Shown in pieces: positions 7,786-59,821 of a DNA stretch of 64,000 nt. Position 1 is the stretch's first letter. The number at the start of each line of letters is the position of its first letter. The stretch comes from an uncultured virus (IMG/VR IMGVR_UViG_3300025695_000008). Lineage: Duplodnaviria > Heunggongvirae > Uroviricota > Caudoviricetes. A model generated the notes under the pieces. That model saw only the letters and a program-made list of their open reading frames with translations, was not told the DNA's origin and did not search any database. The stretch lies in IMG/VR virus record IMGVR_UViG_3300025695_000008; one strand, 5' to 3'. The position numbers and the translations under genes were made by a program.

Positions 7786-8166
7786 TTAATCAGTTAAAAG
7801 ACTTTTTGTGTCCTTAACTAACTCATTCTTATTATTTTGATCTAATTGATCAATAGTGCGATATATATCGGCTAGTCCCTGTGATATATTATCCACTGTC
7901 TTATCTACTCTACTATCGATATGGCGATATAATTTATCTCTATCTAAATCTACATTCCTCTGCAACTCAGATATCGAATCATATGTTTCTCGCTCATTGT
8001 CGTTAACTTTAGTTCTCATAATACCAGCTTCGTATAACTGGTTCATTTTAAAATTTTCAAGATCTGCTTTAAGAGACTTGATTTTCATGTTGTTCATAAA
8101 CATACCCACTACCATCAATAACACGATGACAGCACATACACCTAAAATAAATGATGTTAATTCCAT
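7786..8166 (-). CDS. single-pass membrane protein with coiled-coil
   Basis: N-terminal TM helix then helical region; enclosed by 13-bp inverted repeat 7764-7776/8197-8209. Confidence 0.75.
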   Translation of the reverse strand: MELTSFILGVCAVIVLLMVVGMFMNNMKIKSLKADLENFKMNQLYEAGIMRTKVNDNERETYDSISELQRNVDLDRDKLYRHIDSRVDKTVDNISQGLADIYRTIDQLDQNNKNELVKDTKSLLTD

Positions 8167-8188
8167 AATTTTCTATTTTTTTAATGTT

Positions 8189-8202
8189 ATATGTCAAAGA
8201 AC
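8189..8202 (-). promoter_or_regulatory. boxA-like antitermination sequence
   Basis: GTTCTTTGACATAT directly 3' of tRNA-Ser resembles rrn boxA. Confidence 0.45.
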
Positions 8203-8210
8203 CCCTTTTG

Positions 8211-8295
8211 CGGAAGTGGTAGGATTCGAACCTACGGTACCGTTAAGTACGCTTGTTTTCAAGACAAGTCCATTCGACCACTCTGGCACACTTCC
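8211..8295 (-). tRNA. tRNA-Ser(TGA)
   Basis: GGAAGTG/CACTTCC acceptor stem, CTTGT-CT TGA AA-ACAAG anticodon arm, long variable arm, GGTTCGAATCC T arm; no encoded CCA. Confidence 0.95.
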
Positions 8296-8360
8296 TAATT
8301 ATATACCAATAATAGTAAATAGGCCTTATAATAACAAGTATTAATTTAAATTATATCCAT

Positions 8361-8390
8361 AAAAAAACCCACAGACTTTAATCTGTGGGC
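8361..8390 (-). terminator. intrinsic terminator after tmRNA
   Basis: GCCCACAGA-TTAAAG-TCTGTGGGT hairpin followed by T-tract on minus strand. Confidence 0.85.
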
Positions 8391-8392
8391 TT

Positions 8393-8779
8393 TGGTGGAG
8401 GTAACGGGATTCGAACCCATGTCTCGCTTAGTTATTAAATAACCCTCATTCACATGCTTAGTTGATTTTTATAAACCAACAAAATACCCAATTCCCTTTT
8501 TTTAGTGGTTCGGTTTATTGGTAACTAAACTTCCACTCGCTTATAAGATAGCGACACATCCTTTTGCAGTTTTGGGTGACTGTTGTTAATTAAGCTTACG
8601 CTTAAACTAATTCTAGATCTGCAAACTCAACAGGCTGTCCGTCCAACACGATGTTGCCTTCAGCGTCTATGTAGCTTTCGCTATTTATTTGTTCACATAG
8701 GTTATTAAAGTGTTTCCAATGCTAACACTGCATGCATCAAATTAAATAAGTAGCTACCGATCAATACCGATATACCCCC
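8393..8779 (-). ncRNA. ssrA: tmRNA (387 nt)
   Basis: 5' GGGGGTA pairs with 3' TACCTCC-ACCA including the G3:U70 Ala determinant; GGGTTCGAATCCC T arm; GCATG helix-2 motifs at both ends; internal tag ORF 8682-8602. Confidence 0.93.
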
Positions 8780-8793
8780 AAATTAATATAAAT

Positions 8794-8891
8794 AAAATAT
8801 AACCAAATAACCATTCTGGTTCTCGTAAACAGAAATCCCATCTTATTTAACCCTACTGTACGATACGGGTAGTTAAGTTAGGTTATATTTT
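8794..8891 (-). ncRNA. candidate structured ncRNA A (three-way junction, loop-loop pairing)
   Basis: 11-bp terminal stem AAAATATAACC/GGTTATATTTT, two internal hairpins, complementary loop segments TCGTA/TACGA. Confidence 0.55.
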
Positions 8892-8893
8892 TG

Positions 8894-8965
8894 TAGCCCG
8901 TAGGGGAATCGAACCCCTCTTACCAGGATGAAAACCTGGCGTCCTAGCCGATAGACGAACGGGCC
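8894..8965 (-). tRNA. tRNA-Glu(TTC)
   Basis: GGCCCGT/ACGGGCT stem, CCAGG-TT TTC AT-CCTGG, GGTTCGATTCC. Confidence 0.95.
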
Positions 8966-8969
8966 AAAT

Positions 8970-9089
8970 AAAGAGACACTTCGGGTCTTTCAAGGTTTCT
9001 GGTTAATGGTTTGCTTACGCTCGAACTACTCTAAACCCTTTTTCGTTCTTTTAGCACCACCATTAACTACAGCTTCACTGTATCTCTTT
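8970..9089 (-). ncRNA. candidate structured ncRNA B (possible pseudoknot)
   Basis: terminal stem AAAGAGATAC/GTGTCTCTTT, 9-bp inner stem GTTAATGGT/ACCATTAAC, loop GGGTTT complementary to downstream AGACCC. Confidence 0.55.
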
Positions 9090-9166
9090 TGGCGGTCTGG
9101 ACGGGACTCGAACCCGCGACCCCCTGCGTGACAGGCAGGTATTCTAACCAGCTGAACTACCAGACC
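9090..9166 (-). tRNA. tRNA-Asp(GTC)
   Basis: GGTCTGG/CCAGACC stem, CCTGC-CT GTC AC-GCAGG, encoded CCA. Confidence 0.96.
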
Positions 9167-9170
9167 ATAA

Positions 9171-9208
9171 ATAAAACTAAGTACCGAAGTGCTTAATTTT
9201 TTTTTATT
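9171..9208 (-). other. C(UUCG)G hairpin spacer between tRNA-Leu and tRNA-Asp
   Basis: TTAAGCAC-TTCG-GTACTTAG with A/T-rich stem extension. Confidence 0.55.
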
Positions 9209-9209
9209 G

Positions 9210-9293
9210 TACTCGGAGCGGGAATCGAACCCGCACTTCCAGATGGAAACAAGATTTTAAGTCTTGCGCGTCTACCAGTTCCGCCACCCGAGC
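9210..9293 (-). tRNA. tRNA-Leu(TAA)
   Basis: GCTCGGG/TCCGAGT stem, CAAGA-CT TAA AA-TCTTG, variable arm, GGTTCGATTCC. Confidence 0.95.
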
Positions 9294-9406
9294 ATAATTA
9301 ATAATAGAACACGTTTCACATTTTATTGTGTTCCAACTCTACGACCTTAATAGTTGTGAATCTAATTTTAAAGGTTTCCTCGGTGAAGAGTTTATTATTA
9401 ATTACA
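9294..9406 (-). ncRNA. candidate structured ncRNA C (tight three-way junction, loop-loop pairing)
   Basis: 12-bp terminal stem TAATTAATAATA/TATTATTAATTA, P2 AACTCT/AGAGTT, P3 GAACAC/GTGTTC, loop segments TTCACA/TGTGAA complementary. Confidence 0.6.
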
Positions 9407-9510
9407 TAAAAGAACTTTTAGTGATAACCAAATCACAATACAATGTTAATGATTAATACCAAATAAAACAAGATTATTCATCATTTTTTTATAATAATAA
9501 CCATGTCGAG

Positions 9511-9582
9511 TAGCCCCACCAAGAATCGAACTTGGAACTAATCTTTAGAAGAGATTTGTTATATCCATTTAACTACGGGGCC
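9511..9582 (-). tRNA. tRNA-Arg(TCT)
   Basis: GGCCCCG/TGGGGCT stem, AATCT-CT TCT AA-AGATT, AGTTCGATTCT. Confidence 0.93.
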
Positions 9583-9627
9583 GTTTGATTTTATAAATCT
9601 AGTTATTATTATCGAATTAACAATACT

Positions 9628-10485
9628 TTATTTGAAATATTTTTTCATATCTAATCCCATAACTTTCTCTATAACATCTTTAGGAACTTTAAACTCCTCA
9701 AAATCACCATTATCTTTAACCAAAACTATAACACAACCCATCAAACTTAGATTTTCATACTTACTACCTTTTAACATTTTAAGTATTAATCTACCGTAAA
9801 ATGGTAACTGTAGGTAATAGTGACCCAATGCGTTATCTGGGTGTTCCTGGAAAGGTTTCTTCATCTGTTTGGTCCATTTATTAACACGCATGTTTTTCTC
9901 TTTATTGGTTTTCCAATCAGTTATAACCATACCAAAACCCGTATTCTCTTTATTCATGATCAACCAAACTTTGTCAGGCTGACCTGTATACCCTAATTCT
10001 GGATCACCTAATACCATTTCAGTATCTAATAGTATAGCACCTCTTTTGTTCATTAAATCTAAGAATTTCTCTCCAGCCTCAACCATTGAGTTAGACTTCA
10101 TAGTTTGTTGTGTGTCTACTACAAATATGGGTTCCCTAACGCTTTTATAATTCCCATTAGATTCTATTAATTTTTTCTCTAAAATATAATGTACTCTAGA
10201 CCCCATATTGGTAGCGTATTCACCAGCGGCCTTCCATTCGTTTAATAATTCTTGTTGTACAGCTAAATCACCTTTAGCTTTTCTTAGTGATATTTCTTGG
10301 GCTGGGAATTCTGTATAGAAGTGTTTTAATACCTTTGATACAGATGGCCAGTCACTTCTTACGTCACCCTTATCATCTTTCATGAAATAGGTGTGGGTAT
10401 CTTCTATGAAGCTTAGGTTTAACTCCTTTTTTTTATCTTCAAATATTTCTCTTATCTCTTTTGATACTTGTTTTAAATCTACCAT
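9628..10485 (-). CDS. PD-(D/E)xK superfamily exonuclease
   Basis: SVSKVL, GSRVHYILE, TGQPD, ITDWKTN, YYLQLPFY motifs. Confidence 0.85.
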   Translation of the reverse strand: MVDLKQVSKEIREIFEDKKKELNLSFIEDTHTYFMKDDKGDVRSDWPSVSKVLKHFYTEFPAQEISLRKAKGDLAVQQELLNEWKAAGEYATNMGSRVHYILEKKLIESNGNYKSVREPIFVVDTQQTMKSNSMVEAGEKFLDLMNKRGAILLDTEMVLGDPELGYTGQPDKVWLIMNKENTGFGMVITDWKTNKEKNMRVNKWTKQMKKPFQEHPDNALGHYYLQLPFYGRLILKMLKGSKYENLSLMGCVIVLVKDNGDFEEFKVPKDVIEKVMGLDMKKYFK

Positions 10486-20904: not shown

Positions 20905-23900
20905 TTAGAAACTAAACACTATGTATACGTGAGTCTCTTTAGCGGTAGGAAAACCTACTCTATCCCAGTCAAAATTACCTTTAGCCATATCTATCCCAAT
21001 AGTAAAGATGCTACCAAAATCTGTGAATAAATTAGCGTCAAATTGATTTGGTAAACCGCTCGGGCTCGTAAAACTGCTGAAGTTAAAGCCAGTTAGTTTA
21101 TAGTTTGTATTAGTACCACCACCGTCTAAGTGTGTTACTATGTACTCGTTAGTTGAGGTGTTAGCCGCATAAGCCAATATTGAGCGCGGCGGGTTAACCT
21201 CCTGGGCAAATTGGAATTCGGCATTCATGTCAGTATTAGCGGCTGATGCACCAGCAGTGGCTATATCGGAGTTACCGAATTGATCGAAGAACACAGCTAC
21301 TATCTGCTGTGTGGCATCGAATTCTACTCTAGCGATATACGTGTTGGTCCCAGACCCACTTACACCAGATGTACCTGCTACTCCTGATATTCCTGATGTA
21401 CCATCATTACCATCATTTCCATCTAATCCTGATATTCCTGATGTACCATCGTTACCATCATTTCCGTTATTTCCATCAACACCATTTATTCCTGATGTAC
21501 CATCGTTACCATCATTTCCATCTACTCCAGATATTCCTGATGTACCATCGTTTCCATCGTTACCATCATTTCCATCTACTCCTGATATTCCTGATGTACC
21601 ATCGTTTCCGTTATTCCCATCAATACCATTTATTCCTGATGTACCGTTCTCGCCATTTGCACCGACCTTAGTATAAGAGATTCCGAATGAATTGTAAAGT
21701 GAGTTCGATCCGTTTGCTGCAATAACTGTTACGTTGAATGTAACGTTAGTGCCGTTATCTGTTTTACCAGTTACTTCATATATACCGAATTCTGATGTAT
21801 TTGTAGTTTTGTATAGTGAAATAATATCACCTACTTCGATTCCAGCTAACCAATTCTGCGCATTGATAGAATTAATAGCTGTTTCGTTAATAGTTATTGT
21901 AGTTACTGATGCATTAGTGCTGGATGACATACTAAAGAACTCAGCATTTATAGAAGGTCCGATTGACCATCTTAGAGTGTTAGCACCATCAACACCATCA
22001 TTGCCATCGTTTCCATCTACTCCTGATATTCCAGACGTACCATCATTTCCATCTATACCATCGTTTCCGTCAATACCATCATTCCCATCGTTTCCGTCTA
22101 TTCCTGATATTCCAGACGTACCATCAATACCATCATTCCCATCGTTTCCGTCAATACCATCATTACCATCGTTTCCAGATATCCCTGATGTACCATCATT
22201 ACCGTCATTACCATCATTTCCATCTACTCCAGATATCCCTGATGTACCATCATTACCGTCATTACCATCATTTCCATCTACTCCAGATATCCCTGATGTA
22301 CCATCATTACCATCATTACCATCTACTCCAGATATCCCTGATGTACCATCGTTTCCATCTATTCCTGATGTACCATCAGCACCATCGTTTCCGTCTATAC
22401 CATCTACTCCAGATATCCCTGATGTACCATCGTTTCCATCTATTCCTGATGTACCATCAGCACCATCGTTTCCGTCTATACCATCTACTCCAGATATCCC
22501 TGATGTACCATCGTTTCCATCATTTCCATCAATACCATCGTTTCCATCTACTCCAGATATCCCTGATGTACCATCAGCACCATCATTTCCATCAATACCA
22601 TCAATACCATCGTTTCCATCTACTCCAGATATTCCTGATGTACCATCAATACCATCATTTCCATCTACTCCAGATATTCCTGATGTACCATCAATACCAT
22701 CGTTCCCATCATTTCCATCAATACCATTTATTCCAGACGTACCATCATTTCCATCTATTCCAGATATTCCAGACGTACCATCATTTCCATCTATTCCAGA
22801 TATTCCAGACGTACCATCATTTCCATCTATTCCAGATATTCCAGACGTACCATCAGCACCATCAGCACCATCTATTCCAGATATCCCTGATGTACCATCG
22901 TTTCCGTCAATACCATCGTTTCCATCTACTCCTGATATTCCTGATGTACCATCTGCTCCAGATATCCCTGATGTACCATCAGCACCATCATTACCATCAA
23001 TACCATTAATACCATCAATACCATCACCACCAGTTGCTCCATCTAGGTTAACTGTCCATGATGTATATGTCCCGCCACCAACAGTTCTTGTTGGAGCTCC
23101 GAACACCAATTCACCTGTTATTGAATTATATGTTATAACCTCACATTCTTGGAAGTTAGCTGTGTCGTATACAATTATAATTGACTGGGCTGGGGTATAT
23201 GCTAGATCGGGGTCGACAAATAACGTACCGCTACTGCCTAGGATTAGTGAAGTTACTGATATCGTCTTATATTTGTCCCCATCAGCACCATCAGCACCAT
23301 TTATTCCAGATGTACCGTCAGCACCATTTATCCCTGATGTACCATCAGCACCATCGTTACCATCAGCACCATTTATTCCAGATGTACCGTCAGCACCATT
23401 TATCCCTGATGTACCATCAGTACCATCAGCACCATTTATTCCAGATGTACCGTCAGCACCATTTATCCCTGATGTACCATCAGTACCATCAGCACCATCA
23501 GCACCATCGTTACCATCAGCACCATTTATTCCAGATGTACCATCAGCACCATCGTTACCATCGTTACCATCAGCACCATTTATCCCTGATGTACCATCAG
23601 CACCATCGTTACCATCATTTCCATCTACTCCTGATATCCCTGATGTACCATCAGCACCATCGTTACCATCATTTCCATCTACTCCTGATATCCCTGATGT
23701 ACCATTAGAACCAGAGGATAGTGAACTTAGATCTATGTTAACCAAATCACCACCAGAAGTTGTGAATATTAAGTTTGATGTATTCTCGTTGAAGCTAGCT
23801 CCCACAAATTCGTCACCCGTTGATGAACCTCCACCGCCAGCTACTTTTCTCCATAGCCTAATGTCGGAACCGTTTATTTTAACTACTTCAGAAAAAGTGT

Positions 23901-24108
23901 TGTTTGAACTACTGTAGCTAAACTCTGTGTGTGATTCTATACAAACATAAAGTGATGTTGTACCATTATCGCTTATTATATAAGTGAATTGACCTGATTT
24001 AAAGTCTTGGGGTATCCATTTTATTATCTCTAACGTCTTTAAATTATCGTCTAGCTCGTTATGTGTTAATGGTCTGGATAGGTTTGACCTGAGTATTAAA
24101 TTTGACAT
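20905..24108 (-). CDS. collagen-like (Gly-X-Y) fibre protein
   Basis: N-terminal RPLTHNELDDN attachment-type motif; three G-X-Y blocks separated by globular inserts. Confidence 0.85.
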   Translation of the reverse strand: MSNLILRSNLSRPLTHNELDDNLKTLEIIKWIPQDFKSGQFTYIISDNGTTSLYVCIESHTEFSYSSSNNTFSEVVKINGSDIRLWRKVAGGGGSSTGDEFVGASFNENTSNLIFTTSGGDLVNIDLSSLSSGSNGTSGISGVDGNDGNDGADGTSGISGVDGNDGNDGADGTSGINGADGNDGNDGADGTSGINGADGNDGADGADGTDGTSGINGADGTSGINGADGTDGTSGINGADGTSGINGADGNDGADGTSGINGADGTSGINGADGADGDKYKTISVTSLILGSSGTLFVDPDLAYTPAQSIIIVYDTANFQECEVITYNSITGELVFGAPTRTVGGGTYTSWTVNLDGATGGDGIDGINGIDGNDGADGTSGISGADGTSGISGVDGNDGIDGNDGTSGISGIDGADGADGTSGISGIDGNDGTSGISGIDGNDGTSGISGIDGNDGTSGINGIDGNDGNDGIDGTSGISGVDGNDGIDGTSGISGVDGNDGIDGIDGNDGADGTSGISGVDGNDGIDGNDGNDGTSGISGVDGIDGNDGADGTSGIDGNDGTSGISGVDGIDGNDGADGTSGIDGNDGTSGISGVDGNDGNDGTSGISGVDGNDGNDGNDGTSGISGVDGNDGNDGNDGTSGISGNDGNDGIDGNDGNDGIDGTSGISGIDGNDGNDGIDGNDGIDGNDGTSGISGVDGNDGNDGVDGANTLRWSIGPSINAEFFSMSSSTNASVTTITINETAINSINAQNWLAGIEVGDIISLYKTTNTSEFGIYEVTGKTDNGTNVTFNVTVIAANGSNSLYNSFGISYTKVGANGENGTSGINGIDGNNGNDGTSGISGVDGNDGNDGNDGTSGISGVDGNDGNDGTSGINGVDGNNGNDGNDGTSGISGLDGNDGNDGTSGISGVAGTSGVSGSGTNTYIARVEFDATQQIVAVFFDQFGNSDIATAGASAANTDMNAEFQFAQEVNPPRSILAYAANTSTNEYIVTHLDGGGTNTNYKLTGFNFSSFTSPSGLPNQFDANLFTDFGSIFTIGIDMAKGNFDWDRVGFPTAKETHVYIVFSF
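21350..23703 (-). repeat. 9-bp-unit coding tandem repeats (GTS/GIS/GVD/GND/GAD/GID triplets)
   Basis: three blocks at about 21350-21665, 21982-23040 and 23281-23703. Confidence 0.95.
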
Positions 24109-37902: not shown

Positions 37903-38709
37903 TCACATTAATTCGAAAATACTACTCGAATAGAACCTTATTTTCTTTATCGCCTTTTCTTTTATTTGCCTAACACGCTCTTTGGTTAGTTTTAGATCTA
38001 CCGATATATCCTGTAATGTTGATTCATCACAATCTAAACCGAAATATCTTGTTATGACTAACCGCTCCGTCTCATTAAGTTCCATTAGAACCTTTTTTAA
38101 AGCACGATTTAAGTTCGCTTGTTCATTGTCGTACATATCATCAGGTTTTAATGAGGAGACGTCTTCGGTCTTGTCGTATAAACTTAAACCGTCTTCATCA
38201 TACTTATCGTCTAAATTAGATACTGATGGTAGGTTGGCGTATTTTGTACTACTAACAGCCTGTTTCTCTTCAGTTAAGTTAGTAGCCATTTCCATGTTCT
38301 CTTTCCTGACCTCATTAATTACATTTATAGGTAACCTAATAGTCCTAGAATTATCATTAAGAGATTGTATTATAGATTGTTTTATCCACCATACGGCATA
38401 AGATAGGAATCTCACCTCATCTTGCTCGTAATTAAACCTTTCGGCAGCTTTTAGTAAACCTAAGTTACCTTCTGATATTAAATCACTTAAAGATAAACCG
38501 TTGTTTTGGTATTTTTTGGCAACAGTTATTACGAACCTAAGGTTTGAGTATATTAGTTTATCTTTAGCCCCAGACTTGCCTGATCTAATTTCTTTTAGTA
38601 ACAAGTGTTCTTCTAACCTAGTCATAGGCTCGTGTTTCCTTACATCATGTAAATAGTTGATGATTTCATTCTGGTCAATCCAGTGCGACGTATCTATTTT
38701 ATAATTCAT
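37903..38709 (-). CDS. RNA polymerase sigma-70 factor (RpoD/SigA family, Bacteroidota-like, no region 1.1)
   Basis: NLRFVITVAKKYQ, DLISEGNLGL, YAVWWIKQSI, RTIRLP, LTKERVRQIKEKA. Confidence 0.93.
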   Translation of the reverse strand: MNYKIDTSHWIDQNEIINYLHDVRKHEPMTRLEEHLLLKEIRSGKSGAKDKLIYSNLRFVITVAKKYQNNGLSLSDLISEGNLGLLKAAERFNYEQDEVRFLSYAVWWIKQSIIQSLNDNSRTIRLPINVINEVRKENMEMATNLTEEKQAVSSTKYANLPSVSNLDDKYDEDGLSLYDKTEDVSSLKPDDMYDNEQANLNRALKKVLMELNETERLVITRYFGLDCDESTLQDISVDLKLTKERVRQIKEKAIKKIRFYSSSIFELM

Positions 38710-52378: not shown

Positions 52379-55300
52379 TTATAATACTATGAAGTCATTT
52401 GGATCAACGGTACTTAATTCGATAAAGTTAGCACCTTCAAAATCTAACTTAACCACTCTGTCCTCATACATATCTTTTAAGGTTATTGTTCTAGTCTCTA
52501 CTCCACCTACCGATGTTTTATCAGCCTTAACAAAAGTGTTATTTATACCGTTATCGTTGTCATCAAATAACACATATTCGTCAGCGATACCATTTTTATA
52601 CCTAGTCGCATTCTTAAATATATCGTATTCAACCGATATCTGTATATTACCACCTTCTTGTATAAATAACGTATCATCAACACTGCTATTACTATTTATA
52701 GTTTTAGCTGTTGTGTAACCATTATTATCGATAGTTTTTAATGTTACTTGAGAAGACCCTGCTTGGTTTATTATTAACCTAACTACTGGGTTGTTAGTAC
52801 TCGATAACTCTGAAGGTGTTGGTGGTGCTGTTTGTATTCTACCGAATATATCATCTACCTGCTTCTCGTTAAAATCGAATAACGTACCAAATATAACTTT
52901 CGCGTTATGTCCGCAAGGGTTAGTTATGGTTAATCCACCAATAAACTCACCAGTTTTAGGTAAATTGTTCTCGTCTCTTTCATAATAATAATCCATTATT
53001 AAATCAGAACCAGATTTCCTAAATCCAGTTAAACCGTAACTATATGAATCTCTAAGGTTATCGTCCTTAGCATCATATAATTTGTTTAAACCATTAATTA
53101 ATTTGGTATCGTGAGTCGTGCCGCTAAAAGAGGTTTCAGTAAACGCGTCTCTAATCACTAAATTATTATCAAAGAAATATAAATCATTCTTTGTTGCTTC
53201 ATCTAGTGAAACTACTTCACCATCATATATTTTAATGCTGGTCCTGTCTTTATATAGTGTGTATTTACTAACTAACATAAAATCCATTTCATCCCAATTA
53301 GTAGTATCTGTATGCGGTTCATTTGTTAAAACACCACTACTTTTAGTTTTGTACAATACATTTCTGTCTAGAACATATTTCTCATTATTATACAATGATG
53401 ATGGGTCATACGCCTTCGTGTTTGAATACTCGTATATGCTATTATCGTTTTGGTCGGAACATAGTAAGTCGAATAAATTCGATATATTATTATTCGTTTT
53501 ATCCTGATTTAGCTGTATATTATTATTGTGACTGTTACCAGATGTTAGATCAGTATAATCGTTTTGTATCAAATTAGTATCCATCGTATAACCAGTGTAT
53601 ATTGATCCAGTAGTACCAGTATACGGAAAAGACGCACTACTGGAGGTTAATAGACCAATATTATCAACACCATCTAATTGGTTGTTAGTTAAAGTAGGTG
53701 TGTCGATGTAATTAGGTACCATATCAGAAAGTATCTTATCGGAACCACTGTTATGGTTGTAATATGCGTACCCTACACCACCAGGTTCAGTTGGTAGTAG
53801 GTTTGGTATTCTTAATGATGCACTTGATATGTCCAAGTTGTCCCATTCTGCTGCTTTAGTGGAGTCCCATTGATAAGAGTGTCCAGTTAAATACAGACTT
53901 ATATCCGACCCGCTTATCTTGTCGTTAGAATTTTGATTTAATGTAATACCAGTAGGGTTTAATTTCATCCAAGAAATAGGTCCCCCGCCACTGCTTGTTA
54001 TAACCTCAGTACCTGGTTCGTTATTAGCGCTCTCGTCTATTTTTAGCCAAAAGCTATAGTCTGTAGACGCCGAACCATTCTTATGCAAGACAAAACTACC
54101 TAACTTATATTCTTTTGTGGGATCATAAGTTAGTGGTTTATTGTAAACATACTCTATTAAGTTGTATGTTGAGCCAGTACCAGGTAATTTTATTATATCA
54201 CCTAAATCCAAAGTATCGGAAATGGTACCAGTTAATATTTTAGCCTCCTCGTATGTATAAGGTTTGTGGTTGGTTCTAACGATACCATTTTTCTGGTGTT
54301 TGTCATAACCGATTGGTTTAAAGGATTTAAGATCGTACCTTTCTATTGGTATGAAACAACTTCTTGCACCATTAGGTTGATAAATAGGGTGTATATTTAG
54401 ATTGGTTACCCCACCAGATTCTTTTCTTAAATGATTTGTCGTTATATCTTCTATACAGACATATAACCTATCAACATTTTTATTCTCTATTGTAGTGGTA
54501 CCATCATCTCCCTCAACAACAATATCTGTATTTAATAAGGTTACTTTAACTATATCGTTTATACCGTAATTGTTTATGTTTTCAGAGAATTCTGGTACAA
54601 CACTAAGTATATCTTGATACAATTCTGTTTGGTATACCGCATTTTCCTTTTTCCAGTATCCAGTAATGGATTGATATCTACTCTTAGATAAAAAACTGGT
54701 CTTAATGTTACCTGAATAATCAATTAAATCATAGTCAGCTAAACCTTCGTCATAACCCTTAAAATCTATTGTCGACCCAGTCGGACTTATAATACTGTCG
54801 TTTAAGTAAGAACTTAGGAAAGGGAAATTTGGTTTATTTAATTTAACTGACCTGGGTTCTGGTGTTTTACCGAATATGATACTTTTAGATAGCCCAGTAT
54901 TTTCTAGTTCTTGAGGTGTATTACCTAAATAATTATTACTAGAAGTTATCGTATGTGTGGTTGTAATACCTGGGTAAGATTGGTTTAGATTCGATACCGC
55001 GCCAATATTTTTACTTCTAACCTTAAACTCAAAATCAATTTTATCGTTATTATACTTTTTTTCGTAAGAAGTTACATCACCTATAGTACTGGTTGTTTTA
55101 TACTTATTATAGTATTTCCCGAATATTAGACCGAAATTTTTGTCTTCGTCATATGTTTGAGCGACAACCAGTTTAGGTCTAAATTTATAAGTATCGGTAT
55201 TTGAATTAACCCTAAACATATAGTGATCGACATTATAATTATTATCATCACCTACTGGTTCTATAGACATGGCCTCTTCAACGTAATGTCCGTCTAGTAT

Positions 55301-58300
55301 TGTTCTACCTGCATTGAATCCCACTCTAAATCTTGGGTCGTCAATTGCTGAATAGGTTGTTGGATTAATGTAATCTATTTCAATTTTCTCGTATCTAGAT
55401 AATCTACAACCTATCGTCTCTGGGTAAATAGTTAAATATAGTCTCGTATCTACTTTGAATAGAGATTCTGTGATTATGTTAGCTATCCTATCCTGAGGTT
55501 CGTCAGAACCACTGAAACTAAATATTTGTTCGTGAATTATTTCGTTGAACTGGTCTTGTAATCTTATTATTACGTTTTGGGTAGCCGTCTGGTCAGATTC
55601 AAAATATAGGTCTGACTCAAATTTTAAGTATGAGTTACTCTTAACTAGATAGAAACCATCACCTAAACCTATATGGTTATTATCCACATCAAAATTATCG
55701 TTAAGTGATTTAATGTTGATAAAATTTGTTTCGTCAGGTGTTAATGTTAACGTCTCTTCTAGGGTTTGAGTCAGTATCTCTTCTTCTTTGGGTAGGTAGA
55801 AAGGACCCACATTTTCATCTTTTAGAGAGTAGAACCCATCAAAAGTTAACGTTGATGAGTCACTAATGTATAGCTCATCATTAAGTATATTATCTGTAAC
55901 CTTATATGTTTCGTTAGATGTGGCCCCACTAAATACTTGGTATAGGTATAGATCTTTTGTTAGATTAAACGATATAACGTCTTTAAGTGCATCTATCCTC
56001 TTTTTATTAATTAAAGCTGGACTCAAATGCATATAAGGGTCTGTTTTGGTTCTAGACATATAAGACTGATACATACCAGGTATAATAGTAGTTGTGGTAA
56101 CTCCTGTAGGTGTGGTTGTTGTACCAGTAACACTTATGTCGTCAACAATGTAGTATACCGATCCGTGTTTAATTATATCATCTTTGTAATATAATTCACC
56201 ATCAGTCCAGGTGTTGTTTTTTCTAAATGGTATAACCCAGTTACCAGCTGTACCGTTAATCGCATTAATTGGTTCTGTAATTGCCGTATCCAATGAATAA
56301 CCATAATATATAGGTTGTCTTATCGATAATTCTTTGTCTGTTTCATCTAAATAAGTACTATAATTAGTAGTTGTATAACCTAACCCACTCATATTGATTG
56401 TTAACCCGCTATAATCGAAATAACATACGTGTGGTTTAGGTAATGGGCATATATAATCAATATCATTGGCTAGGTCTGTGTGACCTATACCAATACACTC
56501 GATATAATAATTTCTCTCTGTAGGACCCACTATTATTGGTGAATCATTAAATACTACTGTGTGACTATCTACACCAAAACTTATTGGTTGGTATACCAAT
56601 TGGTTATTAACCTTTAAGTTTAATGGAGTACCATGTTTTAAATCTATATTTAATTTAGTTATTTCGGTATTCCTATTTAAATTAGTGGCCCTAAGTATCG
56701 TAATTTGGTTAGTACTAAAAGTAAACTCGTTTTGGTAATCGTATTCTGGTATAGTGGTTATAAACGCGTTAGTGGTACCACCTATAGTGGTCAATAGTGT
56801 ACCCGATGCCGTACCGTCATATATTTTTAATTGATCCACACCTTTTATATCGAGTTTAATCACATATTCTCCCGCTCCGTTTGGTAGTACTATCGTTTCT
56901 GTATCATTAACATTATCTAAAGATATGTAGTCGCTACTATGACTTACTTTAGTGTTTATTGTTGGTAGTATACCTGTAAACATTCTATTAGTATTCAATC
57001 TGTACAAAGTATTGTCGTATTTAACGAAAACTCCTTTTGTACCACCTGAAACATTTATGTTACCATTGTATATCGTATCGTCACCATAGTTTTCGGTACC
57101 ATCCCAATCATAAACTTTTACGGTTGTATTACAGGCGTCTTCTATACTATAATAAAATCCGAAGTACTCGTTTATACTAGGGTCGTAACCAGTATAGTTT
57201 AACCCCTTTTTACCTTTAATACTGAATGTGGGGGTTTCACCTATTATAGCGTCTTTACCTTTACCAGTAGTTGAGAATGGGTTTGTCGTACCATTACTAA
57301 CTGGTTTTTGTGCTTTATTCTGGAATTCTGAACCATCATTACCTAACCAGCCTAGATCATCGTTTAACCCGTGTTTGTAGACGAATTTATTATCAATGAA
57401 TTTACTGTTTTGTATTTTTTTACCAGCGTTTAATATTGATGTTGCTGGTGTAAATTGTTGTACTAGTTTAACCCATGAACCATCAAATTTATTTAAAAAT
57501 TCTAAACTCTTTGTGTTTGTAACTGGTGTATTAGTTAGCTTAGCATAATCATAATATATCTTACTTAATGTAGGGTATGTCTTTATAGTTTTTCTGTTAT
57601 CTGGTTTGATAAATTCATCTAAACTTTTTTGTATGAATTCGTTAAATGTTAATTCACCGACATTAACTTCTTTGTCGTAAGGGAATGTTAAATCAGAATT
57701 AACACTCGTATTACTTCTGTTTAGTAACCTGTATATAGTAAAGTCGAATATTTTATCTGATGATAAAAATACCTCTAATTCTTTCGAGTTTATAACTAAC
57801 CTGGAATCATCCTCATAATATTCAGTATACCCTACGGAGTCTTCGGATAACCTTAATACTTTATCTTCTGAATATACCCAAGACTTTACATTGTCAACGC
57901 GTCTATCTAGGTTAAATAGAGGTGTCTTACCTTCGTATTCATAAGCTTTTATATAGGCATTACCAAAATCGTAAGGTCCGTAATTTTTACCATCATTGCT
58001 TAAGTTGAAGCCGCTCTCTTGGTATTGAACTTGTCCTGGTACTGTTGGATACCCATCTCTGTCTATAGGTAGTAATGTTAGCAGAACTTCGTCACTATAT
58101 TTATACCCGTAAATGTCTCGTGCCTTGTCCTCAAAATTTAATTTTTGTCTAGCAACATAAACGTGTTCGTTTATTTCGAATATAGAGTCGGGTAAACCAA
58201 CCAGATTTAATATAAATTCAATGGATTTTCTAGTTCCTTTTGATTTCCATAGATGGTACGAGTTTATAAATATTCTTCTCCATAGCTCTATATCTATTTC

Positions 58301-59821
58301 GGCTGGGGTTACTCCTGGCTCAACATTTAAATCTTCTAGACTAAACAATGATTCCATTATAGTTCCTTCATCCTCTACGTTGTAGGTTTCGAAACCTAAC
58401 ATATTACCATAGTTTTTAGTGAGTAGGTCTGGTATGTTTTCTATCTTGTCATAAGATAAGTTAGTCATATAGGTTATCCCATCAATATATTTCCTTACGT
58501 TATCGAAGTTTTTACCCATTAAACCTAATATCAAATTAAACCTTCTATCCTCTGTATCGAATTCTTTTAAAGAATCGGTAGTTAAGAACCTAGATATTAG
58601 ATTAGTTTTAGTGGAATCGAAATCATCTGATATCCCATTTAATTTAGTTAGATATGAATCAAAATCATTGCTAAATAAATCTATATTAACTTCATCTATT
58701 TGAGGGAATATTAGTTTTTCGTTAACGTTTAGATTAACCCCATTATCGTCAACCTTACTATACCTTATAGTACTAATATATTTTTCTTTATCGTAATCAT
58801 AATCCAATAAAAATCTACCCATATCAGATAGATTTGTATAGAACTCATCGTATTCTTGACGTTTTGGTTTTATCCAGAATTTTCTATTTAACGTAAGGTT
58901 TTGGTTTACTACGCTAGAGAAAGGGTCACCTTCTATGGTTAAATAAATACCAGTATCATCATCATCATAAGATGATGGTAAGGTAGCATTTATTATAGGG
59001 TATTCAACTTTGTTGTAATAAAGAACGTATTCTTTGTGTTTTTTAGAAAAATTTCTTATCGGAGCCACATTAACCTGATCATTAATTGTGGTACCACTAG
59101 AGGTATATTCTATATCGAAAGGGTTTGATATATTTGCTAAATTAACTTTTAATTGTGCCGTATCTGTCCTCTCTGAATAGTTGTATTCTGAGGCTACTGG
59201 TGATTGAATCCCTATGACATCCAAAGCTATACTGGCTGGGAAATTTCTAGTTATTTCAATAACACTATTTTTTATAACATCTTTTAAAGGAGAGTACAGA
59301 ACGTAGTTCTCTAATTTCTTTTTATCGAATAAAACCTTTACAGTTAAGTTATTATCAATTTTTTTATTTACTTGACTAATCGCACTAGTTTCATTGTTCT
59401 TAGATGGGTTGTTTTCATTTATAGACTCTGATGTATAACTCACATCACCACCTACGTATTCAGCTTGTTTACCCTCAATAACTTCTTTTTGGGTTATTGA
59501 CTTATTTATAGAGAAATTACCTAAAGTGAAGTATGGGTCACCACCTATTTCGTTTTTAGAACTAGCAAATTGTAAACCTACGGCATTATCACCTAATGTA
59601 TTATCACCAGTAATAACGTTATTCGTACCTTGTATTTTGTATAATTGTATAGCTTTTTCATAAGCCATAAAAGATGAACATGGTACGTACTTATTTTGTC
59701 CGTTTATATTATATGTTCTATAGCCATTACAACCTAATTCAGATGCGGCGGCTAGTGCAGCTTCACTAGTGTCGTACAAGTGAGCTATTAACGGTGTGTT
59801 CGTATAACCAAGATTAGCCAT
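52379..59821 (-). CDS. giant (2480 aa) baseplate wedge-like structural protein
   Basis: WRRIFINSYHLWKSKGTRKSIEFIL wedge-type KGT motif; several W/Y-containing carbohydrate-binding-like repeats. Confidence 0.7.
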   Translation of the reverse strand: MANLGYTNTPLIAHLYDTSEAALAAASELGCNGYRTYNINGQNKYVPCSSFMAYEKAIQLYKIQGTNNVITGDNTLGDNAVGLQFASSKNEIGGDPYFTLGNFSINKSITQKEVIEGKQAEYVGGDVSYTSESINENNPSKNNETSAISQVNKKIDNNLTVKVLFDKKKLENYVLYSPLKDVIKNSVIEITRNFPASIALDVIGIQSPVASEYNYSERTDTAQLKVNLANISNPFDIEYTSSGTTINDQVNVAPIRNFSKKHKEYVLYYNKVEYPIINATLPSSYDDDDTGIYLTIEGDPFSSVVNQNLTLNRKFWIKPKRQEYDEFYTNLSDMGRFLLDYDYDKEKYISTIRYSKVDDNGVNLNVNEKLIFPQIDEVNIDLFSNDFDSYLTKLNGISDDFDSTKTNLISRFLTTDSLKEFDTEDRRFNLILGLMGKNFDNVRKYIDGITYMTNLSYDKIENIPDLLTKNYGNMLGFETYNVEDEGTIMESLFSLEDLNVEPGVTPAEIDIELWRRIFINSYHLWKSKGTRKSIEFILNLVGLPDSIFEINEHVYVARQKLNFEDKARDIYGYKYSDEVLLTLLPIDRDGYPTVPGQVQYQESGFNLSNDGKNYGPYDFGNAYIKAYEYEGKTPLFNLDRRVDNVKSWVYSEDKVLRLSEDSVGYTEYYEDDSRLVINSKELEVFLSSDKIFDFTIYRLLNRSNTSVNSDLTFPYDKEVNVGELTFNEFIQKSLDEFIKPDNRKTIKTYPTLSKIYYDYAKLTNTPVTNTKSLEFLNKFDGSWVKLVQQFTPATSILNAGKKIQNSKFIDNKFVYKHGLNDDLGWLGNDGSEFQNKAQKPVSNGTTNPFSTTGKGKDAIIGETPTFSIKGKKGLNYTGYDPSINEYFGFYYSIEDACNTTVKVYDWDGTENYGDDTIYNGNINVSGGTKGVFVKYDNTLYRLNTNRMFTGILPTINTKVSHSSDYISLDNVNDTETIVLPNGAGEYVIKLDIKGVDQLKIYDGTASGTLLTTIGGTTNAFITTIPEYDYQNEFTFSTNQITILRATNLNRNTEITKLNIDLKHGTPLNLKVNNQLVYQPISFGVDSHTVVFNDSPIIVGPTERNYYIECIGIGHTDLANDIDYICPLPKPHVCYFDYSGLTINMSGLGYTTTNYSTYLDETDKELSIRQPIYYGYSLDTAITEPINAINGTAGNWVIPFRKNNTWTDGELYYKDDIIKHGSVYYIVDDISVTGTTTTPTGVTTTTIIPGMYQSYMSRTKTDPYMHLSPALINKKRIDALKDVISFNLTKDLYLYQVFSGATSNETYKVTDNILNDELYISDSSTLTFDGFYSLKDENVGPFYLPKEEEILTQTLEETLTLTPDETNFINIKSLNDNFDVDNNHIGLGDGFYLVKSNSYLKFESDLYFESDQTATQNVIIRLQDQFNEIIHEQIFSFSGSDEPQDRIANIITESLFKVDTRLYLTIYPETIGCRLSRYEKIEIDYINPTTYSAIDDPRFRVGFNAGRTILDGHYVEEAMSIEPVGDDNNYNVDHYMFRVNSNTDTYKFRPKLVVAQTYDEDKNFGLIFGKYYNKYKTTSTIGDVTSYEKKYNNDKIDFEFKVRSKNIGAVSNLNQSYPGITTTHTITSSNNYLGNTPQELENTGLSKSIIFGKTPEPRSVKLNKPNFPFLSSYLNDSIISPTGSTIDFKGYDEGLADYDLIDYSGNIKTSFLSKSRYQSITGYWKKENAVYQTELYQDILSVVPEFSENINNYGINDIVKVTLLNTDIVVEGDDGTTTIENKNVDRLYVCIEDITTNHLRKESGGVTNLNIHPIYQPNGARSCFIPIERYDLKSFKPIGYDKHQKNGIVRTNHKPYTYEEAKILTGTISDTLDLGDIIKLPGTGSTYNLIEYVYNKPLTYDPTKEYKLGSFVLHKNGSASTDYSFWLKIDESANNEPGTEVITSSGGGPISWMKLNPTGITLNQNSNDKISGSDISLYLTGHSYQWDSTKAAEWDNLDISSASLRIPNLLPTEPGGVGYAYYNHNSGSDKILSDMVPNYIDTPTLTNNQLDGVDNIGLLTSSSASFPYTGTTGSIYTGYTMDTNLIQNDYTDLTSGNSHNNNIQLNQDKTNNNISNLFDLLCSDQNDNSIYEYSNTKAYDPSSLYNNEKYVLDRNVLYKTKSSGVLTNEPHTDTTNWDEMDFMLVSKYTLYKDRTSIKIYDGEVVSLDEATKNDLYFFDNNLVIRDAFTETSFSGTTHDTKLINGLNKLYDAKDDNLRDSYSYGLTGFRKSGSDLIMDYYYERDENNLPKTGEFIGGLTITNPCGHNAKVIFGTLFDFNEKQVDDIFGRIQTAPPTPSELSSTNNPVVRLIINQAGSSQVTLKTIDNNGYTTAKTINSNSSVDDTLFIQEGGNIQISVEYDIFKNATRYKNGIADEYVLFDDNDNGINNTFVKADKTSVGGVETRTITLKDMYEDRVVKLDFEGANFIELSTVDPNDFIVL

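Follow-up and report, generated by a model that had tools for sequence, protein, structure and literature searches.

A family of predicted kissing-loop RNAs encoded in the tRNA arrays of uncultured aquatic phages

The tRNA cluster of phage T4 carries two genes for RNAs annotated as "small, stable RNA", namely rnaD (119 nt), located 1 nt after tRNA-Arg, and rnaC (139 nt), located 6 nt after rnaD. To our knowledge, a function is not known for either of them. In the pRNA of phage phi29, a helix closes the two ends and leads into a three-way junction, and two of the loops are Watson-Crick complementary to each other; purine and lysine riboswitches combine a tight junction with side-by-side arms and loop-loop pairing. 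GOLLD and ROOL RNAs are described in PMC12286853 as being encoded "often near tRNA islands" and as having an unknown function, and the same source reports that they form homo-oligomeric cages. Theta ribozymes, which are HDV-like and are found in phages, are reported to cleave at a site that lies next to tRNAs (PMC10879173).

The locus considered here lies in a 64,000-nucleotide stretch of DNA from an uncultured virus of the Caudoviricetes (IMG/VR IMGVR_UViG_3300025695_000008), which as a whole is referred to as the window. This piece of phage genome has a GC content of 32% and uses the minus strand for nearly all its genes. Its products include a sigma-70-like factor (37903-38709, minus; with regions 2 and 4), ClpP, a RecD2-like helicase, and collagen-like fibre proteins, together with a T5 A1-like "DNA transfer" protein. 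The latter has its best cultured matches in phages of marine Flavobacteriia, namely Maribacter phage Panino (47% identity) and Flavobacterium phages. Among the other products are a 1067-aa collagen-repeat protein with eight repeat stretches (20905-24108, minus) and a 2480-aa protein without a Pfam match (52379-59821, minus). The window also has a cluster of tRNA genes with a tmRNA gene inside it (Table 1); a tmRNA is likewise annotated in the tRNA array of Maribacter phage Panino, downstream of the A1-like gene.

The RNA gene in the window

A sequence-only reading of the window had pointed to a candidate non-coding RNA on the minus strand, next to tRNA-Leu, with three helices (P1, P2, and P3) joined by linkers of 0–1 nt, a TTCACA inside P2 complementary to a TGTGAA in the P3 loop, and an additional AGG-AAA-CCT hairpin. 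P2, P3, the two complementary hexanucleotides, and the small hairpin were all found at the positions given. P1 is indeed 12 bp long with its 3′ strand at 9306-9295, but its 5′ strand had been placed one nucleotide off: it is 9404-9393 and not 9405-9394. The linkers read in the sequence are 0 nt (P1/P2), 1 nt (P2/P3), and 0 nt (P3/P1), and the 3′ end abuts tRNA-Leu as had been said, nucleotide 9294 touching nucleotide 9293.

Table 1. Features of the kissing-loop RNA and of the RNA gene cluster in the window (all on the minus strand; A3 is the larger family alignment)
Feature	Position	Strand	Basis or remark	Pairing in A3
tRNA-Arg(tct)	9510..9582	-	ARAGORN and Rfam; 103 nt upstream of kissing-loop RNA	
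Gap between tRNA-Arg and tRNA-Leu	216 nt	-	contains kissing-loop RNA	
TTG-N20-TAACATTG	9441..9471	-	string present; candidate promoter only	
Whole structured RNA	9294..9406	-	113 nt as modelled; paired core 9404-9295; R2 score 106.4 bits	
P1 5′ strand (TAATTAATAATA)	9393..9404	-	partner 9306-9295; 11/12 P1 pairs change on both sides in family	82.8% of cells paired; 11/12 pairs covarying
P1 3′ strand (TATTATTAATTA)	9295..9306	-	sequence reading, RNAfold, family covariation	
P2 5′ strand (AACTCT)	9387..9392	-	partner 9340-9335; 6/6 pairs change on both sides; 91% of cells paired	91.3% of cells paired; 6/6 pairs covarying
P2 3′ strand (AGAGTT)	9335..9340	-	family covariation	
P2a 5′ strand (CACC)	9382..9385	-	inner continuation of P2 arm; MFE pairing with GGT-G of 9346-9342, C bulged	
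P2a 3′ strand (GGTCG)	9342..9346	-	MFE fold and family alignment	
P2b hairpin (GAGG-AAA-CCTT)	9371..9381	-	3/3 modelled pairs change on both sides; 100% paired	100% of cells paired; 3/3 pairs covarying
P2c hairpin (TAG-ATTCACAA-CTA)	9351..9364	-	loop carries kiss 5′ half TTCACA (9360-9355); MAFFT and RNAalifold	
P3 hairpin (GAACAC/GTGTTC, 9333-9328/9312-9307)	9307..9333	-	15-nt loop with kiss 3′ half TGTGAA (9320-9315)	99.5% of cells paired; 6/6 pairs covarying
tRNA-Leu(taa)	9209..9293	-	ARAGORN; Rfam 56.6 bits; 0-nt gap to RNA 3′ end (9294)	
tRNA-Asp	9166-9090	-	ARAGORN/Rfam	
tRNA-Asp/tRNA-Glu gap	124 nt	-	window RNA cluster	
tRNA-Glu	8965-8893	-	ARAGORN/Rfam	
tmRNA	8779-8393	-	Rfam RF00023, 61.5 bits, full length; inside tRNA cluster; no ARAGORN call	
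tRNA-Ser	8295-8210	-	ARAGORN/Rfam	

P1 joins the 5′ and 3′ ends of the RNA and opens into a three-way junction with linkers of only 0–1 nt. Of its two arms, one is the hairpin P3, and the other, P2 with its continuation P2a, forks into two small hairpins, P2b and P2c. Between the 8-nt P2c loop (AUUCACAA) and the loop of P3 (..AAUGUGAR..) 5–6 bp are formed, by which the two arms are locked side by side. Since TTCACA lies in this 8-nt loop and not loose in P2, what it makes with the P3 loop is a genuine kissing contact between loops. Strain variants were seen in two metagenome runs at 9325-9326 (adjacent A>G and T>C, plus strand), where the 5′ portion of the P3 loop is variable; no paired position is hit.

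For the window sequence, RNAfold returns in essence the fold of the sequence-only reading. The minimum free energy of −20.9 kcal/mol compares with −13.9 ± 2.95 kcal/mol for shuffled sequences (z = −2.38; 2 of 200 shuffles as good), which is only modestly unusual and suggestive only. A fold predicted from this one sequence is not convincing by itself because the spacer is AT-rich and P1 consists of A and U throughout. It is the comparative evidence given in the next section, and not the single-sequence energy, that makes the support for the fold decisive.

The RNA does not correspond to a catalogued family. At gathering thresholds, the 4227 models of Rfam 15 detected in the window only the five tRNAs and the tmRNA; permissive scans returned nothing overlapping 9294-9406 (region 8100-9700, E ≤ 10) and nothing at the element in 10 other members (E ≤ 1), in line with the sequence-only reading, in which no family had been recognized. 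There was also no match to the GOLLD (RF02032) and ROOL models at the element or elsewhere in the window, and none to phi29 pRNA (RF00044) or purine-type riboswitches in the window or the 10 members. With respect to tRNAs and tRNA-like RNAs, neither the five ARAGORN calls nor RF00005 fall on 9294-9406, and a T-loop-like GTTCRA motif is absent from it. A literature search did not reveal a description of the family, and the motif strings and two contig numbers are absent from the files searched of a catalogue of 10,006 csRNAs (PMC10690425), two further supplementary files of which may list the family.

The promoter-like string that had been noticed upstream of the RNA is present. It resembles, with one mismatch, the −33/−7 pattern of Bacteroidota (TTTG / TAnnTTTG), and it may be a promoter for the Leu-Asp-... 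part of the cluster. It should be noted that the gene strand has 17 strings matching as loosely as this one, five of them in non-coding DNA (8% of the window), another one lying 12 nt before tRNA-Ser, and that the counts of the Bacteroidota-type −7 motif in the window are small. A sigma-70 scan did not call the string (7 sites versus 6.2 expected, which is chance level), and a terminator scan was also at chance level. Nor is the string a feature of the family: other members have a tRNA at that position.

Homologues and covariation

A covariance model (R1) made from the single window sequence and the structure of the sequence-only reading was applied to 94 viral tRNA-array contigs that share two 12-mers common to the window's Asp-Glu spacer and a spacer of the relative L004. 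Two homologues were detected, L071 with a strong score (75.8 bits, E = 9e-15) and L038 with a weak one (22.7 bits), which both showed compensatory changes in P1, P2, and P3 and had invariant loop sequences in common. A scan of viral contigs for the invariants of these two sequences and the window retrieved 29 contigs, 29 of 29 matched by R1; a second one, in which the six kiss bases and the P3 loop were left free, retrieved 41 (20 of them new), all matched by a rebuilt model (R2); and a third one, with other positions relaxed, retrieved 50, of which only the two new ones were passed to R2. The union of the three scans amounts to 51 uncultured viral contigs in addition to the window. The loci scored by R2 (E = 1e-8 to 1e-18) are full-length or are truncated at the end of a contig. 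The relatives from the collections were found by exact-pattern scans, and all three patterns demanded GGTC.

The family has been found so far only in uncultured aquatic phage contigs. An exact 28-mer of the element was found in no viral contig, and a 24-mer of the tRNA-Leu only in one unrelated high-GC phage. BLAST of positions 8100-9700 against GenBank phages matched, in the best 40 of 338 records, the tRNA parts and never the element; BLAST of two other members yielded chance matches only (E ≥ 0.09); the nearest record (G001) lacks the region; and R2 had no match in the whole records of Maribacter phage Panino and Flavobacterium phage immuto. In 185,579 prokaryote genomes, one per species, there were five pattern matches, none of which was confirmed by R2 (best 14.8 bits, E = 0.29), and therefore there is no prophage copy in this set by which a host could be assigned directly. 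Via the neighbouring exonuclease gene, one viral and 15 metagenome loci syntenic with the window were located, and tRNAs are found there only in L004. This contig (91% protein identity) has a tRNA array of different content and lacks the kissing-loop RNA. Since L004 and the cultured relatives do without it, the RNA is not essential to phages of this lineage. A homologue of the window's exonuclease was present in only one of five carrier contigs tested, and carrier contigs reach 321 kb, from which it follows that the RNA has spread, patchily, over more than one phage lineage.

Two alignments were evaluated, A2 (30 rows, 20 distinct sequences) and A3 (49 rows, 31 distinct), the latter with the full structure including the kiss, P2a, and P2c; as a control, the 3′ partners were slid by 1–3 columns. 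In A2, 92.0% of the cells pair versus 38–52% after sliding, and both partners are changed in 26 of the 27 pairs; the covariation score was reached by 0 of 500 shuffles. In A3, 92.6% of the cells pair versus 31–44%, and double changes occur in 30 of the 41 pairs; the measure of "further pair types" was unexceptional (61 of 500 shuffles). These values have to be read with the fact that both alignments were fitted to the covariance model, which favours the structure, and that many rows are close kin and fall into two subtypes. P1, P2, P2b, and P3 each covary (Table 1). P2a pairs in 97.5% of the cells of A3 and is almost invariant; being conserved and not covarying, it is consistent with pairing, and the invariance of its GGTC is partly due to ascertainment. 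In a structure-blind alignment (MAFFT and RNAalifold, 22 distinct sequences), P3 was recovered with nine pairs, all with double changes, and the hairpin P2c, which had not been modelled, was revealed as (N)AG-AUUCACAA-CU(N′). The third pair of P2c is AU in 22, CG in seven, and UA in one of the 31 distinct sequences, and is unpaired in one. P1 and P2 were not recovered in this run, in which the subtypes were mis-registered in the 5′ half.

Comparison of the rows by eye shows that in the second subtype P3 has 9 bp and an 11-nt loop, versus 6 bp and 13–15 nt in the subtype of the window, and that all three junction linkers are 0 nt; P2b is in this subtype a different 5-bp stem with a tetraloop. 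The idea that P1 is a ruler of exactly 12 bp mimicking the stacked acceptor and T stems of a tRNA was rejected: P1 has 9–13 bp across the subtypes.

The kiss itself varies. Its 5′ half, the bases of which were free in the second scan, is found as UUCACA, AUCACA, ACCACA, UCCACA, and UCCAUA. All four distinct sequences that have C at position 48 have G at position 91, and in one sequence C51-G88 is replaced by U-A. Otherwise, positions 91 and 92 are only A or G, either of which pairs with U. In 10 of the 31 sequences the outermost pair does not form, which leaves a 5-bp kiss there. Thus, the predicted contact, which the sequence-only reading had noted as a complementarity, covaries at two pairs.

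Whether the two loops pair within one molecule or between molecules has to be considered. An end helix, a three-way junction, and two complementary loops are the plan of phi29 pRNA, and a self-assembling RNA of this kind could form dimers or rings, as pRNA does in its ring on the portal. GOLLD and ROOL, found in the same niche, are reported to form homo-oligomeric cages (PMC12286853). But there is no match to the pRNA model or any other Rfam model, the phages carrying the RNA, with contigs of up to 321 kb, are large and not phi29-like, and the longer P3 of the second subtype goes along with a shorter loop, as a distance constraint within one molecule predicts. This trade-off between stem and loop length hints at an intramolecular contact, and self-assembly is considered quite improbable.

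A further suspicion would be that the element is nothing but a chance fold in an AT-rich spacer or a decayed, functionless tRNA remnant. A P1 made up entirely of A-T pairs in a genome of 32% GC, a z of only −2.4, and the lack of the element in the closest relative could be cited in its favour. However, every helix is kept via compensatory changes in 51 contigs, and neither ARAGORN nor the tRNA model makes a call; this explanation is refuted by the homologues with compensatory changes and is given hardly any credence. The comparative data thus indicate that there is indeed a gene at the locus, one for a compact folded RNA of about 110 nt, the predicted fold of which is well supported. The compact tertiary-folded RNA that had been proposed from the window sequence is borne out by covariation in P1, P2, P3, the small hairpin, and the loop-loop contact over 51 viral contigs, with compensatory changes in the 31 distinct homologues.

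Place in tRNA arrays and proposed role

The genomic context was counted for 50 copies analysed together and for two copies added later, tRNAs being called by ARAGORN within the flanks examined. Same-strand tRNAs were present in the flanks of 44 of the 50 copies and opposite-strand tRNAs in none. Thirty of the 50 copies start not more than 3 nt after the end of a tRNA, which in 23 of the 30 is tRNA(CAT), and 27 end not more than 8 nt before the start of a tRNA, which in 18 of the 27 is tRNA-Glu. A tRNA is flush on both sides in 23 and on at least one side in 34. With the two later copies, which have no tRNA within 400 nt, 34 of 52 abut a same-strand tRNA, 18 do not, and none has an opposite-strand tRNA nearby. 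These abutment counts are lower bounds since ARAGORN misses some neighbours; for example, a T-arm-like sequence is present upstream in L121, L132, and L136. The spacing between the RNA and its neighbours is that between ordinary tRNAs of the carrier arrays, which are 4–8 nt apart. The RNA gene thus occupies a "tRNA slot", on the strand of the surrounding tRNAs and usually 0–3 nt after one and 0–8 nt before the next. The RNA belongs to phage tRNA arrays, and the abutting tRNA-Leu of the window copy is therefore typical. In the window and in the flanks inspected, the neighbouring tRNAs do not have an encoded CCA.

These arrays contain other unusual RNA genes. In L131, a GOLLD RNA (2367-2857; 162.8 bits) with a tRNA-Lys inside lies 0.8 kb from a family member; L120 has a freshwater-1-like RNA (893-955; 71.2 bits versus a gathering score of 72), and L134 a YrlA-like match (710-841; 45 bits, below the gathering score of 69). 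ARAGORN also calls tRNAs with four-base anticodons (gcaa, gtaa) in L125 and L140 (2236-2311) and in L144 (429-505), which may be odd tRNAs or tRNA-like RNAs. In the window, a second, uncatalogued RNA of about 105–125 nt is found in the tRNA-Asp/tRNA-Glu spacer (8966-9089, minus), and also in L004 (4160-4286). It has an invariant AGUGAAGCUGUA ... GAAAGACCCGAAG inside a covarying 9-bp closing stem, with double changes in eight of 11 predicted pairs (16 sequences), and there is no Rfam match to it in the window. An exact-pattern scan retrieved it from 94 viral contigs, where it lies for the most part in tRNA arrays; it is more widespread than the kissing-loop RNA and lies within 1.5 kb of the latter in three of 30 loci. 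The Glu-tmRNA spacer (8780-8892, 113 nt, minus) and the tmRNA-Ser spacer (8296-8392, 97 nt, minus) have no assigned feature and only weak, sub-threshold Rfam matches. The array of L004 (3850-6855) is rearranged: Arg-Asn-Met is followed by an ORF of about 340 codons, then by Leu-Ala-Asp-Glu and another ORF, and the Arg-Asn and Ala-Asp spacers are about 100 nt long and have closing stems. As the comparison of the window with L004 reveals, the content of tRNA islands turns over fast between close relatives.

In bacteria, RNase P cuts at the 5′ end of every tRNA, and in precursors lacking an encoded CCA RNase Z cuts after the discriminator. From this known course of tRNA maturation, the tRNA-like spacing, and the neighbours without CCA, we infer that the RNA would be transcribed as part of a tRNA precursor and be set free by the cuts that mature the neighbouring tRNAs. 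Its 3′ end would be generated by the RNase P cut at the 5′ end of the downstream tRNA and its 5′ end by an RNase Z-type (or equivalent) cut after the CCA-less upstream tRNA. P1 would then shield both ends from exonucleases, and the RNA would accumulate as a small stable RNA acting in trans, its kissing-loop core being presented to a host or phage protein or to another RNA. The window copy, the upstream neighbour of which is 103 nt away, may instead start a transcript or be located in a spacer that is longer. That the RNA is co-transcribed with tRNAs, freed by tRNA-processing enzymes, and acts as a stable RNA in trans is the reading we favour, with a probability of roughly 0.6. Against it stand the 18 of 52 copies without an abutting ARAGORN tRNA. 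It should be considered that the sequencing runs matching the stretch are DNA metagenome contigs only and that RNA runs share 6% of its words.

A trans-acting RNA of this kind is ranked before a cis-acting element of the tRNA precursor, which would be a structured spacer that prevents tRNA misfolding, positions or paces the cuts of RNase P, Z, or E, or blocks exonucleases, and that would have no role once excised. A cis role would agree with the 23 of 52 copies that lie flush between tRNAs and the 34 that are next to at least one, and the frequent tRNA(CAT) upstream and tRNA-Glu downstream could mean a link to particular tRNAs. But the Met-RNA-Glu module occurs in one closely related subtype and may reflect shared ancestry, 18 of 52 copies have no abutting tRNA, and ordinary tRNA pairs of the carrier arrays are 4–8 nt apart without such an element. 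Moreover, a mere spacer would need neither a covarying kiss nor the approximately 30 loop and junction bases that are invariant or near-invariant in the family. We therefore regard a role in cis as unlikely.

Still lower in this ranking, after aptamer and self-assembly, comes a self-cleaving ribozyme of a new kind, which would remove the 3′ trailer from the upstream tRNA, as has been proposed for the theta ribozymes of gut phages. The start of 30 of 52 copies within 3 nt of a tRNA 3′ end is what has been reported for the latter (PMC10879173), but downstream tRNAs are abutted equally, the 5′ boundary bases show no conservation and are separated from the invariant core by a helix of 9–13 bp, the topology is not a nested double pseudoknot, and no ribozyme family matches. 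A ribozyme is thus very improbable.

Conservation is high among the unpaired bases that surround the kiss. This invariant core is far more constrained than would be required for stabilizing the fold, and its strong conservation argues for a specific partner. A search for such a partner among the 62 window ORFs scanned did not reveal a recognizable RNA-binding protein (e.g., Ro60, RtcB). The same conserved bases would also be understandable if the RNA were a stand-alone aptamer or sponge, the core of which binds a small molecule or a host factor, e.g., a defence signal or enzyme, and which is supplied in large amounts as a decoy by expression from the tRNA operon. A junction with arms locked by their loops is the plan of several ligand-binding RNAs, and the RNA shares phage tRNA islands with enigmatic RNAs such as GOLLD (L131) and a freshwater-1-like RNA (L120). 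On the other hand, no riboswitch family matches, linkers of 0–1 nt do not form a purine-type pocket, there is no regulated gene, and the gene neighbourhood does not give a clue to a ligand or partner; this is an improbable function, placed between the role in cis and self-assembly. A kissing-loop "aptamer" hidden in a tRNA operon, made in tRNA-like amounts, and binding and neutralizing some component of the host (e.g., a protein of its defence, an enzyme that processes or targets tRNAs, or a small signalling molecule), or else a new catalytic RNA, would constitute a new functional class, which can be put forward only as a doubtful possibility.

Comparison with known structured RNAs

With the purine riboswitches, the kissing-loop RNA has in common the closing helix P1 and two parallel arms tied together by loop-loop pairing. 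In these riboswitches, however, multi-nucleotide junction strands form the binding pocket, whereas the junction of the kissing-loop RNA, with strands of 0, 1, and 0 nt, has no pocket; furthermore, one of its "loops" belongs to a side hairpin of a branched arm, and there is no downstream gene to control. The phi29 pRNA is similar in size and architecture, but the kissing-loop RNA is found in tRNA arrays of large phages and its 5–6 bp of complementarity look intramolecular. Theta ribozymes resemble it in being small structured RNAs straight after the 3′ end of a phage tRNA (PMC10879173). HDV-like ribozymes are nested double pseudoknots (P1, P1.1, P2, P3, P4) that cleave at the 5′ end of P1, whereas the kissing-loop RNA consists of P1, the arm with P2, P2a, P2b, and P2c, and P3, with one kiss, has no conserved boundary nucleotide, and is not matched by an Rfam model.

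Because of its size, the family should be a tractable case for finding out what structured RNAs do in phage tRNA islands: about 110 nt, with its secondary structure specified in full, a tertiary contact that lends itself to testing, and a clear hypothesis for its biogenesis (release by RNase P and RNase Z), it is suited for probing, crystallography or cryo-EM, and pull-downs. A partner, if found, could show what phages gain from non-tRNA passengers in their tRNA operons. For annotation, one type of long "spacer" in tRNA arrays is explained, and a covariance model is available for finding more.

The closest parallels are in the genomic niche. T4 rnaC and rnaD are, like the RNA described here, non-tRNA RNAs of 110–140 nt on the same strand and with tRNA-like spacing in a phage tRNA cluster. 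They are not homologous to it: in T4 68000-75000, with filters off, R2 found nothing above 13 bits (E = 0.3), the best hit overlapping rnaC or rnaD had 8.3 bits (E = 2.7), and no match spans either of them as a whole. Also, rnaC ends in a T-arm-like hairpin, whereas the kissing-loop family has a kissing-loop three-way junction and no tRNA-like arm. GOLLD and ROOL occupy the same genomic niche but are 4–8 times larger and have unrelated structures. Phage tRNA islands are emerging as nurseries of enigmatic structured RNAs, T4 rnaC and rnaD having been enigmatic for fifty years and GOLLD and ROOL more recently, and the kissing-loop RNA is a new family and a new fold within this known phenomenon.
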